Assembly: GCA_964016885.1 (NCBI GenBank)
Contig: OZ024753.1
Coordinates: 39,308,001 to 39,372,000, forward strand
Source of the DNA: Eledone cirrhosa
Taxonomy: Eukaryota
Length of the DNA stretch: 64,000 nucleotides
Direction of reading: 5' to 3'
Shown: positions 4,629 through 61,676 of the stretch, piece after piece
Position numbering within the stretch: the stretch's first letter is position 1
Layout: each line of letters opens with the position of its first letter
The notes under the pieces: model-generated
The model's database searches: none
Seen by the model: the letters and a program-made list of their open reading frames with translations, nothing else
Told to the model about the DNA's origin: nothing
Translations under genes and position numbers: made by a program

Positions 4629-4661
<33 letters not shown>

Positions 4662-4665
<4 letters not shown>

Positions 4666-4860
4666 ATAATAATAAATTTGAAGACTAAAATCCAAAGAGG
4701 GCTCGATAAGGATAAATATATATCAAATATATAAGAACCGTAGAGCAAATATTTATTAAAATAACAGATTAAAGTTTAAGCAAAGAATCGGTGCTTTCAC
4801 CGTTAAAGGTGAAAGCAGCGATTCTTTGCTTAAACTTTAATCTGTTTTTTTAATAAATAT
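4662..4860. mobile_element. (TA)n-flanked dispersed repeat (Penelope pLTR-like) ending in a palindrome with 53-bp arms
   Basis: 4662-4750 recurs at about 8093-8185 (+) and 30125-30212 (-). Arms 4749-4801 and 4808-4860 are reverse complements with 2 mismatches. The arm sequence recurs at 38529-38637. Confidence 0.6.
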
Positions 4861-4931
4861 ATATATATATATATTTATATATATTTGGTAATATATATTT
4901 ATATTTGTATATATATATATGTATATGTGTG

Positions 4932-19098: not shown

Positions 19099-19135
<37 letters not shown>

Positions 19136-19166
19136 AGTGTAATTTTCTACACAAAGCGAAGGTTAT

Positions 19167-19568
19167 AGAGAAAATTGAGGTTGGTAATGGCACATGGAAT
19201 ATATAAGAGACAGAATACTTTTTTGTGAAAAAACATAATTTTATAAGGTAAGGAAATAATAAAGGGTATAAAAAATGACCGGTTTCGATGGGTCTGCAAA
19301 AGCCATCTTTTCAAATGTTGATTAATATTAAGAAATCCCACAATGAATTTTATACTTGAATTTTCAAGTCTCAAATTTTAACTCTTCGTATTATTAATTT
19401 TTCTTAATATTAATCAACATTTGAAAAGATGGCTTTTGCAGACCCATCGAAACCGGTCATTTTTTATACCCTTTATTATTTCCTTACCTTATAAAATTAT
19501 GTTTTTTCACAAAAAAGTATTCTGTCTCTTATATATTCCATGTGCCATTACCAACCTCAATTTTCTCT
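19167..19568. mobile_element. Inverted repeat (169-bp arms, 64-bp spacer), Penelope pLTR-like, with a hammerhead motif in each arm
   Basis: 19167-19335 is the reverse complement of 19400-19568. The element is flanked by (TA)n. Confidence 0.8.
19415..19465 (+). ncRNA. Minimal type I hammerhead ribozyme, U3-A8 core variant (mirror copy on - strand at 19270-19320)
   Basis: TTGAAAA, helix II GATGG/CCATC, GAAA, palindromic helix III ACCGGT, GTC triplet. Helix I has one mismatch. Confidence 0.6.
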
Positions 19569-29693: not shown

Positions 29694-29698
<5 letters not shown>

Positions 29699-30012
29699 CG
29701 ATATTAAACAAATGGAAACTATATTTATAAAACCATATTTATTTCATTATACATATTTCGGGGATACCATATTAAAAATATGGCATGTCAGATAAAATAC
29801 AATATATAAACAGTTTTATAAATAATTTTGACGTACCATAAATATGAGCGACCATTATGTAGGAAGCTGGTTTGGTATTTATAAAACTGTTTATATATTG
29901 TATTTTATCTGACGAAGGCATGCCATATTTTTAATATGGTATCCCCGAAATATGTATAATGAAATAAATATGGTTTTATAAATATAGTTTCCATTTGTTT
30001 AATATCGTATAT
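29694..30012. mobile_element. Inverted repeat (arms 29694-29824 and 29876-30012), Penelope pLTR-like
   Basis: Arms are reverse-complementary except for a 6-bp deletion in the left arm. Confidence 0.8.
29901..29966 (+). ncRNA. Minimal type I hammerhead ribozyme
   Basis: Helix I TATTTTAT/ATGAAATA, CTGACGA(A), helix II GG..ATGCCATATT/AATATGGTAT..CC, GAAA, short helix III, ATA triplet. Predicted cut is after 29958. Confidence 0.7.
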
Positions 30013-30094
30013 CTACTCCAAAAACTTGTCGAGCGCTTTATATCAGTTATAAAATATTTACTTGTTGTAACCCAACAATTTTAAATAAAACTTT

Positions 30095-30128
<34 letters not shown>

Positions 30129-30285: not shown

Positions 30286-30355
30286 TTGGGAGGGTCATAT
30301 TGCCAATAAGAAACACATGTGCGTGTGTTTCTTATTGGCAACATTACCCTCCCAA
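30286..30355. repeat. Imperfect palindrome (~32-bp arms) of a dispersed repeat end
   Basis: TTGGGAGGGTCATATTGCCAATAAGAAACACA is paired with its complement. Single arms occur at about 23950 and 41340. Confidence 0.75.
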
Positions 30356-33828: not shown

Positions 33829-33873
33829 AGTCTATCTCTGATGAAGGACTAGTGTCCGAAACGTGTAAACTCT
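33829..33873 (+). ncRNA. Hammerhead-like motif with poor helix I, in a pLTR-like repeat (~33772-33935)
   Basis: CTGATGA-A-GGAC-TAGT-GTCC-GAAAC-GT-GTA. Confidence 0.5.
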
Positions 33874-39480: not shown

Positions 39481-39591
39481 TTATATATATATATATATAT
39501 ATAATGTAGGAGGTGAGTTTTATTGTAGTACAATAAAGCAATGCAGATATCGGATAAGAAGCACTCTACAGTTTGTGGGACTGGAGTATGC

Positions 39592-39943
39592 ATAATATAA
39601 GATCAAAAGATGGTTAAAGGAGTTCAATATATTTTATTATGCGCATTTCAAAAACAAACATCATCAAACAATAATATTTGTGTTTTCATCAGATAAAACA
39701 GGAGAACATGATATGAAGGCTAAAAAAACACTTGTTGATAGTGCAGTTTTAAATCAACATATATATATCATGATATGTTGATTTAAAACTGCACTATCAA
39801 CAAGTGTTTTTTTAGCCTTCATATCATGTTCTCCTGTTTTATCTGATGAAAACACAAATATTATTGTTTGATGATGTTTGTTTCTGAAATGCGCATAATA
39901 AAATATATTGAACTCCTTTAACCATCTTTTGATCTTATATTAT
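39592..39943. mobile_element. Inverted repeat (171-bp arms, 10-nt loop), pLTR-like
   Basis: 39592-39762 versus 39773-39943; one mismatch seen. Confidence 0.85.
39835..39905 (+). ncRNA. Minimal type I hammerhead (mirror on - strand at 39630-39700)
   Basis: Helix I TGTTTTAT/ATAAAATA, CTGATGA, long helix II with a weak base, GAAA, palindromic TGCGCA, ATA triplet. Confidence 0.6.
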
Positions 39944-46213: not shown

Positions 46214-46308
<95 letters not shown>

Positions 46309-46316
46309 CGAAGGAA

Positions 46317-46500
46317 ATGTGGTAAGGAACCAGGTGGACCATAACGCACCAAAGTACTCAATACTTAGGGTAGTAGAGTGGGTAATAGGAACAAGTAAGA
46401 CCCCGACGGCTGAGCTCAAGCCGTTTCGACAGCTAATTCTGTACAGAATTAGCCGTCGAAACGGCTTGAGTTCAGCCGTCGGGGTCTTACTTGTTCCTAT
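46317..46500. mobile_element. pLTR-like repeat ending in a palindrome with 58-bp arms (46385-46500)
   Basis: Centre is CTGT|ACAG. A paralogue lies at 52804-52974. Confidence 0.75.
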
Positions 46501-46824: not shown

Positions 46825-46979
46825 GGAAAAGAGTCAGGACCCCGGATGGTGAGGTCCGGGCCTTTCAACAACTAGATACACGTGCATGTGTATATATATA
46901 TATACCGGACTCAATCGGGGGTAACCACAGTAAGTAAGGTACTCAATATAAAGCAGAGTATAAATATCAAATATAGAGA

Positions 46980-51367: not shown

Positions 51368-51464
51368 TATAAGGAAAAAAGGATGAAATCGAAAATGCAA
51401 CTGGAGTCTTATTTTTAAAATAAGACTCCAGTTGCATTTTCGATTTCATCCTTTTTTCCTTATA
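51368..51464. repeat. Perfect palindrome (48-bp arms, 1-nt centre)
   Basis: The left arm is homologous to the unmirrored copy at about 38878-38930. Confidence 0.9.
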
Positions 51465-51482
51465 TATATATATATATATATA

Positions 51483-51872
51483 TACAATATTAAATAAATG
51501 GAAAACTATATTTATAAAACCATATTTATTTCATTATATATATTTCGGGGATATCATATTAACAATATGCTATGCCTTCATCAGACAAAATACAATATAA
51601 ACAGTTTTATAGATAAATATATTCGACATACCGTAATAAACATCAACTTCATTTGAAGAGGTTCACTCTAGCAGTAGTGACTGCTAGAGTGAACCTCTTC
51701 AAATGAAGTTGATGTTTATTACGGTATGTCGAATATATTTATCTATAAAACTGTTTATATTGTATTTTGTCTGATGAAGGCATAGCATATTGTTAATATG
51801 ATATCCCCGAAATATATATAATGAAATAAATATGGTTTTATAAATATAGTTTTCCATTTATTTAATATTGTA
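51483..51872. mobile_element. Inverted repeat (193-bp arms, 4-nt loop AGTG), pLTR-like with two hammerheads
   Basis: 51483-51675 versus 51680-51872. The left arm matches about 30405-30580. Confidence 0.88.
51763..51828 (+). ncRNA. Minimal type I hammerhead (mirror on - strand at 51527-51592)
   Basis: TATTTTGT-CTGATGA-A-GG..CATATT/AATATG..CC-GAAA-TATATA-TA-ATGAAATA. Confidence 0.7.
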
Positions 51873-51956
51873 AATATACTCCAAGTATTTGTCGAGTGCT
51901 TTTATATCAGTTATAAATATTTACTAGTTGTAACCCAACAATTTTAAATATAACTT

Positions 51957-52029
<73 letters not shown>

Positions 52030-52119
52030 AGAAGTTATATTTAATTTGTTGGGATACAACAAGCAAATATTTTTATAATTGATATAAAGCACTCAACAAA
52101 TTTTTGGAGTAAAAATACA

Positions 52120-52270
52120 ATATATTAACAAATGGAAACTATATTTATAAAACCATATTTATTTCATTATACATATTTCAAGGACACCAAAGCGCACCAT
52201 AATTTGCTTTGGTGTCCTTGAAATATGTATAATGAAATAAATATGGTTTTATAAATATAGTTTCCATTTG

Positions 52271-52279
<9 letters not shown>
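52120..52279. repeat. Palindrome (74-bp arms, 12-nt loop) of a hammerhead 3' half
   Basis: 52120-52193 versus 52206-52279. GAAATATGTATAATGAAATA is the same as in the 29901 ribozyme. Confidence 0.85.
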
Positions 52280-52633: not shown

Positions 52634-52803
52634 CGTAAAAGCACATATCGTTATATGCTTTTTCTATGAAAATTAGTAGTGGGCAGACTAATTTGCATAG
52701 AGTGTGAGTACGTACCGGTTCAACGGAGACGATAAAAACAAATAACGAAACGAAATTAAATTTCGTTTCGTTTGTAACGAATATATATATAAAACAAAGG
52801 AAT

Positions 52804-52974
52804 TGTGGTAAGGAACCAGATGGACTATAACGCACCAGAATACTCAATACTTAGGGTAGTAGAGTGGGAAATAGGAAAAAGTATGACCCCGACGGCAGAG
52901 CTCAAGCCGTTTCGGCAGAGCTCAAGGCGTCGAAACGGCTTGAGCTCTGCCGTCGGGGTCATACTTTTTCCTAT
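52804..52974. mobile_element. pLTR-like repeat ending in a palindrome with 44-bp arms (52871-52974)
   Basis: Paralogue of 46317-46500. Confidence 0.75.
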
Positions 52975-60579: not shown

Positions 60580-60805
60580 TGTATGTATACGTACATACAC
60601 ATATGTATACAGACGTACAGTAGCATGCATATATATATAAATATATATATATATATACATATATACATACAGGTACACATACATATATGTACGTATCAGT
60701 TTATGTGTACCTGTATATATATATGTATATATATATATATATATGCATGCTACTGTATATGTATGTATACGTACATACATATATGTATACAGACGTACAG
60801 TAGCA

Positions 60806-60863
<58 letters not shown>

Positions 60864-60979
60864 CAGGTACACATATATATATGTATATATATATATATAT
60901 ATATGCATGCTAATGTACGTCTGTATACATATATGTATGTATACGTACATACACATATGTATACAGACGTACAGTAGCA

Positions 60980-61029
<50 letters not shown>

Positions 61030-61676
61030 CAGGTACACATAAAGTGATACGTACATATATGTATGTGTACCTGTATGTTTATATATATATATGCCTGCTA
61101 CTGTACGTCTGTATACATATATGTATGTATACGTACATACATATATGTATACAGACGTACAGTAGCATGCATATATATATATATATATATACATATATAC
61201 ATACAGGTACACATAAACTGATACGTACATATATGTATGTGTACCTGTATGTATATATATATATATATATGCATGCTACTGTACGTCTGTATACATATAT
61301 GTATGTACGTATACATACATACTTACATTTAGGTATATATATAGATATAGATATATGTGTGTGTGTATGTGTGTATGTGTGTTTGTATGTGTGTATGCGT
61401 GTTTGTATGTGTGTGTATGTGTGTGTGTGTGCACGTATCGACTTGCATGAGAAGGTATGTATATATATATGTGTGTGTATGTGTGTATATATATGTGTGT
61501 GTGTGTGTGTGTGCGTATGTGTGTCTGTTTGTGTGTGTATGTGTGTGTGTGTGTGTGTGTGTTTGTGTGTGTGCACGTATCGACTTGCATGAGAATGTAT
61601 GTATATATATATGTGTGTGTATGTGTGCATGTATGTGTGTGTGTGCGGATATGTGTTTGTATGTGTGTGTATGTGT

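Follow-up and report, generated by a model that had tools for sequence, protein, structure and literature searches.

Published work on Penelope-like elements (PLEs) already describes inverted pLTRs, tails and junction palindromes and proposes self-priming (PMC8557442, PMC3846280); how inverted pLTRs originate and what the PLE hammerhead does are both treated as open questions (PMC8557442, PMC11167929). No paper placing PLE junctions at RNA 5′ ends was found in the open-access literature. As outlined in PMC8557442, the Hydra clade resembles the parent element described below in its single ORF with RWR, DKT, CxCx5C, CxxC and CxH motifs and no CCHH, and in its (TA)n targets, tandem and inverted structures, one-sided tail and pLTR hammerhead. 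Described members of the clade are mostly shorter than 3 kb with a tail of 30-40 nt, against 3.54 kb and ~78 nt here, and, compared by motifs, they differ from the non-canonical U3-A8 core and 37-nt loop II found here. Penelope of the rotifer Adineta vaga (Arkhipova et al. 2013, PMC3846280) likewise has head-to-head pLTRs, a junction palindrome and a tail on one side, and an Inr-like TCACT was noted in its pLTRs, as in the elements here. The explanation put forward in that paper was self-priming, probably on an antisense template, whereas the counts presented here speak rather for two cDNAs, each run out to the 5′ end of the RNA.

In vitro, PAc, a Poseidon element of Anolis (Frangieh et al. 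2024, PMC11167929), cuts and extends both strands; its targets are AT-rich and two internal start sites bound its tail, as here. Ribozyme cutting was dispensable in that system, with no reads ending at the cut, and no indication of RNA cut by the ribozyme in vivo was found, whereas a class of junctions at the predicted cut was found here. PLE hammerheads surveyed by Cervera and de la Pena (2014, PMC4209133) include pairs on opposite strands, 100-700 bp apart. Those hammerheads share with the present ones type I topology, a 5-bp helix I, a long helix II and a palindromic loop III, and the Cercyon example shows the U3-A8 covariation of family 1; unlike them, family 1 has a very long loop II, holding a predicted start site.

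The window analysed here is a stretch of 64,000 nucleotides. Following re-checking of the sequence, the three palindromes of the initial annotation were found as described: 46385-46500, with 58-bp arms around the centre GTAC and 2 mismatches between arms; 52871-52974, with 44-bp arms around a 16-nt centre; and 52120-52279, with 74-bp arms around a 12-nt centre. In the first two, GAAA-helix III-GTC-GGGGTC runs outward along each arm, as had been stated. They are Penelope-type inverted insertions, as had been proposed, and they do carry the 3′ half of a hammerhead. All three elements exceed their palindromes, having a tail on a single side (~78 nt at 46307-46384 and 52793-52870, ~92 nt at 52028-52119) and sitting within (TA)n. 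The locus at 29901 is a palindrome too, with its centre 60-90 nt upstream of CUGACGA, as is 51477-51878. Signed positions in family 1 are numbered from +1, which is the A of AGT(C/A)CAG within loop II.

46307..46384, minus strand: one-sided tail of family 1, +62 to ~+140, ending in (TA)n; read from the sequence, with the same end in raw reads
46385..46444, minus strand: tail-bearing arm, +2 to +61, comprising the 3′ part of loop II, GAAA, helix III and the 3′ strand of helix I; predicted GUC cut site between 46405 and 46404
46441..46444, no strand: junction GTAC common to both arms, each extending to parent +2
46441..46500, plus strand: tail-less inverted arm, +2 to +61, running into (TA)n; GAAA at 46458-46461, predicted cut 3′ of 46480
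52793..52914, minus strand: family 1 subfamily B, tail and arm, the arm ending at +18
52915..52927, plus strand: templated junction insert of 13 nt, in which 12 nt directly copy the arm sequence
52928..52974, plus strand: subfamily B tail-less arm, beginning at +15
52028..52193, minus strand: family 2b tail-bearing arm, stopping in loop II
52189..52279, plus strand: family 2b tail-less arm, from A9 of the parent CUGAUGA, overlapping the other arm by 5 nt (AAAGC)
29694..30098, plus strand: family 2 palindrome with an intact CUGACGA hammerhead at 29909; the tail-less arm extends to +3, the tailed arm begins near +55
51477..51950, plus strand: family 2 palindrome with hammerheads intact in both arms; both arms extend to +1, ~90 nt upstream of CUGAUGA, the right arm with a G before +1

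Genome-wide counts were taken over the 3.0-Gb genome. A 37-mer across the family 1 arm and tail gave 2356 exact matches, far beyond chance, and its reversed control gave 0; the subfamily of the 52871 locus had 3192 matches and the family of the 29901 locus 4770. The GTAC junction of 46441-46444 recurs in loci L038, L047, L048 and L173. RAD reads carrying the same species label contained both 3′ ends and joints between opposite strands. In each of three runs, 34-50 reads crossed one mirrored centre, extending only ~8 nt into the second arm; an assembly artefact was rejected on these grounds. Since these reads end at AATT, like a restriction cut, a drop in depth is uninformative on the axis. No coding gene was evident by eye among the 67 ORFs of at least 150 aa in the window. 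Of 513 Rfam matches in the window, the 150 listed included no hammerhead and were all microRNA families, each under its gathering score.

Most of 25 distinct unmirrored family 1 segments read ACCCC-(U/C)UGA(U/G)AA-G..CGGCUA-37 nt-UAGCCG-UC-GAAA-helix III-GUC-GGGGU. The family 1 parent has the whole hammerhead fold, with a U3-A8 core (a C3-A8 mismatch in some subfamilies) and a loop II of 37 nt; its true helix II pairs +11..+18 with -36..-28, and the 'central hairpin' that had been placed at 46442 arises from the mirroring itself. The minimum-energy structure of the parent is a three-way junction, with a stability not above that of shuffles (z -0.18). A three-way junction, conserved core and NUH, as in type I hammerheads, were found together in the parent only, the mirrored copies being without the 5′ half. 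Compared with the canonical core, family 1 has the fold with U3-A8 or C3-A8 and family 2 has CUGANGA. The half absent from mirrored copies had been given as CUGANGA; it is indeed missing, but reads UUGA(U/G)AA. Similarly, unmirrored copies with a 5′ half upstream do exist, with the core (U/C)UGA(U/G)AA and no CUGANGA at the expected place. A genome-wide pattern search for a CUGANGA parent of family 1 with helix I attached gave 0 matches. Among 49 loose CUGANGA matches, the 30 examined were junction or flank coincidences and were rejected; L118, one of these 30, is a long copy with a CUGAAGA-like variant from which helix II is absent.

Extending past the tail resulted in 306 matches and led to tandem arrays of a 3.54-kb unit that encodes a single ORF of 717-719 aa. 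The ORF was read by eye and contains the RT motif YRDD and the GIY-YIG motif VIY..YIG, together with LRWR, SDKTG (DKT), CNCPDRSIC (CxCx5C), CNLC (CxxC) and CKH (CxH); CCHH is absent. Because this motif set fits the definition in section 11 of PMC8557442, the parent would fit a Hydra-clade-like EN+ Penelope-like element. The tandem units or pLTR, the inverted 5′ copy and the tail on a single side agree with EN+ Penelope-like architecture, and insertion into (TA)n is a trait of the Hydra clade. Family 1 insertions have two fixed 3′ ends, the tail site (~+140) and the tail-less site (+61). A non-LTR retrozyme was rejected, the stubs being single half-ribozyme copies of a coding parent and not tandem non-coding units. 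L161-L162 (G000:C1:91472500-91491500) is a five-unit array with ~40 tandem copies of a 55-nt ORF piece at the 5′ junction. In short tandems at L133, L134, L135 and L160, a new copy beginning at ~+1 comes after the 5′ UTR and ORF start, which points to jumps from the 5′ end of the RNA to a site farther downstream.

Mirror axes were tallied by hand in 90 of the first 100 listed family 1 matches along contig C1, with both arms mapped; the final seven matches and three overlapping loci picked by BLAST were left out. BLAST-ranked loci L001-L030 were excluded from junction counts as biased to the query. The 90 loci comprised 72 short mirrors, 11 long copies and 7 short copies without mirror. The longer arm ended at -5..+4 in 53 of the 72 short mirrors and between -6 and -50 in none, the other 19 falling short of +1; three short unmirrored copies also start at +1 or -2. 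In 30 subfamily B loci the axis pattern was the same and no arm went beyond ~-25. The initial annotation had explained mirroring by snap-back of cDNA at hammerhead helix II, offered as a structural rule. The axes are not set by helix II: the hotspot lies near +1, inside loop II, and genome-wide ~10,300 mirrors near +1 stand against 0 matches to a helix-II-register product. As a general rule, snap-back at helix II is refuted. Dozens of junction types occur among the 72 short mirrors, and their overlaps of 0-6 nt, blunt joins and templated inserts resemble end joining.

Besides family 1, two families break outside helix II, each at a Y-A-S-T-like motif. In family 2, where CUGANGA is intact, 19 of 70 loci were short mirrors; in 12 of these 19 an arm ended at +1..+8 of the TCACT motif, ~90 nt before CUGA. 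One arm ended within helix II or at its edge in 2/19 and both arms in 0/19, contrary to snap-back at helix II. The window copies at 29694 and 51477 follow the family 2 axis pattern. The family 2b parent of 52120 reads CUGAUGA-AAGCGCACC; this locus had also been assigned to snap-back, an assignment that does not hold, as the arms share 5 nt (AAAGC) at a junction lying outside the register of helix II. Four other family 2b copies break 35-100 nt upstream or beyond. Family 7, with 13,036 matches, breaks at TTAGT, the start of helix I; of 30 loci most were long, and four short or truncated copies reach or begin at +1 or -2. The window copy at 4749-4860, also of family 7, fits a 2-nt helix II register, counter to the +1 pattern.

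The number of cDNAs was assessed from the arm to which the loop belongs. A tail-primed cDNA folding back would always leave the loop on the tailed arm. In the 72 short mirrors the loop was on the tailed arm in 29, on the tail-less arm in 20 and equal in 23. For two defined junctions, tailed against tail-less ownership genome-wide was 203:212 (p 0.69) and 548:563 (p 0.67). This ~50:50 ownership argues against a single cDNA folding back. In the window, 52120 and 29694 have extra sequence on the tail-less arm, which at 52120 is absent from the tailed arm. Differences between the arms of different loci are real, but the local homogenisation suggested for them does not stand, the differences being subfamily variants with thousands of copies each. 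After 16 junction mis-alignments from 4 loci had been dropped, private substitutions in 61 loci were mirrored in 1 case and unmirrored in 56. Because only 1/57 was mirrored, later flipping of the loop by arm exchange is unlikely. The view that junctions are newly made at each insertion was judged right. In long insertions the inverted partner is joined at unrelated positions. A2 and A3, in which both outer ends are visible, have one tailed and one tail-less end; in A2 the main copy is tail-less and the inverted partner tailed. The arms agree at a subfamily marker in 50/50 loci, L048 being discordant in the sample. Such agreement points to a common RNA, or a common source, for the two cDNAs in most cases, and is explained as easily by a one-ended copy.

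The mirror point is likely the position where the element RNA begins, either a predicted transcription start or a predicted ribozyme cut, and two bases, +1 and +42, are named here as expected RNA-end positions. From sequence context, we infer that the main 5′ end, +1, is a capped transcription start. An initiator-like Y-A-S-T is present at +1 in three families (AGT[C/A]CAG in family 1, ACT[G/A]CC in family 2, AGTTTCAG in family 7), and a start site inside the pLTR is reported for Penelope of D. virilis (PMC2377424). A G at -1 that is not parental and follows a non-T base had 1342 matches genome-wide. It followed A or C in 56 of the 100 matches listed, giving an estimated ~750, compared with 326 where an A stood there after A or C. 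At -1, T and C match the parent, so that only G and A are comparable, and the excess of G, estimated from these 100 matches, is a modest ~2.3-fold. Several loci have the extra G on both arms. In L1 and SVA, an untemplated G is read as a copied cap and marks capped RNA (PMC4859970); the enrichment before +1 is as expected from a cap. A TATA-like TATTTAAA at -29 is not conserved in subfamily B or family 2. Copies keep the AG, and +1 was therefore rejected as a 3′ splice site.

For the minor 5′ end, +42, a hammerhead cut is predicted. Genome-wide, 469 mirrors fell in the +33..+52 window around the GUC/GGGGUC cut. Among the first 50 listed, both arms were exactly at +42 in 24, one arm in 8 and neither in 11, and 7 were ambiguous. 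Inspected by eye, these junctions mostly had A, not C, as the extra base of the cDNA strand. Clear starts at the cut site were also seen in 4/30 loci chosen by a pattern without that site. This hotspot suggests that ribozyme-cut RNA is used as template in vivo, of which it would be a genomic sign; on this reading the ribozyme would cut in vivo. At 46825-46847 in the window, a relative of family 1 has an arm that ends precisely at the predicted cut of the ribozyme, where it is joined to unrelated sequence.

We consider it rather probable that priming was two-ended, both cDNAs running off the RNA 5′ end before being joined head to head. The transcript would start at +1 in an upstream unit, and the element protein would cut (TA)n. 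Both DNA 3′ ends would then anneal to UAU sites at +61 and ~+140 and be extended on the RNA, much as PAc extends both strands from two sites in vitro (PMC11167929). Short copies would result from initiation in the more 5′ of the transcript's copies of the tail region, the cDNAs then running off after 60 and 140 nt. End joining of the two cDNA ends would give the inverted insertion, and such head-to-head joining of two DNA copies would account for the inverted ends of these elements. In twin priming of L1, the two arms copy different RNA parts, unlike the arms here, which copy the same part. Two primers on one RNA, inversion and small junction indels are features common to twin priming (PMC4859970) and the present elements. 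With somewhat less confidence, and as a tentative reading, the genome could be a census of Penelope template RNAs, in which mirror axes preserve the positions of capped starts and of hammerhead cuts made in vivo, and an enzyme dimer copies one RNA twice from both break ends; with the family 1 start inside loop II, the 5′ copy would have half a ribozyme, and read-through and 3′ copies could cut.

The main rival of two-ended copying is a hairpin intermediate opened at either side: one cDNA would run off the RNA 5′ end and its fold-back be copied, with symmetric opening or later rearrangement of the centre scrambling the junction. It comes close to the self-priming idea in PMC3846280, against which, in its simple form, the counts weigh. 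The 50/50 agreement of arms at subfamily markers, the frequent stop of both arms at the same RNA end and the recurrence of junctions on small hairpins (AGCCGT/ACGGCT) speak for it. The tail-less arm nevertheless owns half of the loops, some junctions have both arms full length with 0-1 nt between, private mutations are unmirrored, long inverted partners meet at unrelated positions, and the fixed +61 end would need a separate cause; we regard this explanation as unlikely. Still less probable is two-ended copying in which +1, following a U-rich tract, is where reverse transcriptase stops or a nuclease cuts. A T-rich tract does directly precede +1 in all three families and the TATA box is not conserved, yet long copies read through that tract, and the Y-A-S-T motif of three families, the G excess at -1 and the start inside the D. 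virilis pLTR (PMC2377424) point to transcription.

Inheritance of whole palindromes from a few palindromic masters would explain why some junction types recur hundreds of times. It is very improbable given the dozens of junction types in 72 loci and the presence of one junction on several subfamily backgrounds in both orientations; the matches listed already suggest that junction type is not linked to subfamily markers. Self-priming of the second strand by snap-back at helix II has, in our judgement, the smallest probability of all. The family 1 axes do lie within loop II, 52120 is in the helix II region and 4749-4860 fits the register, against which stand the lack of register products beside ~10,300 mirrors near +1, the 0/19 of family 2, the upstream breaks of the four other family 2b copies and the 50:50 loop ownership.

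Further observations concern other elements in the window and the flanks of family 1 stubs. Family 7 copies at 4640-4870 and 38529-38680 fold in a hammerhead-like way around a CAGAAGA core (U4 to A), and their +1 lies where helix I begins. A palindrome of another family at 39495-39943 has CUGAUGA intact in both arms, a tail on one side and its axis ~75 nt upstream of the CUGAUGA core. The palindrome at 19108-19568 has 169-bp arms, a 64-nt centre, a GAAAC motif and a one-sided tail. Short palindromes of other families lie in (TA)n at 51368-51464, 30286-30355 and 60592-61321, the last being a cluster of short inverted units, and two further CUGAUGA...GAAA hammerhead-like motifs of other families are at 33838-33860 (plus strand) and 47024 (minus strand). 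L033:300-1500 contains the 3′ end of another PLE, comprising a GIY-YIG-like region and the 3′ UTR, which meets a family 1 stub at position +14 of the latter. Finally, the four stubs L101, L110, L121 and L129 have a common upstream flank from another repeat, ending CTGAGGAA, a possible recurrent target or shared carrier.
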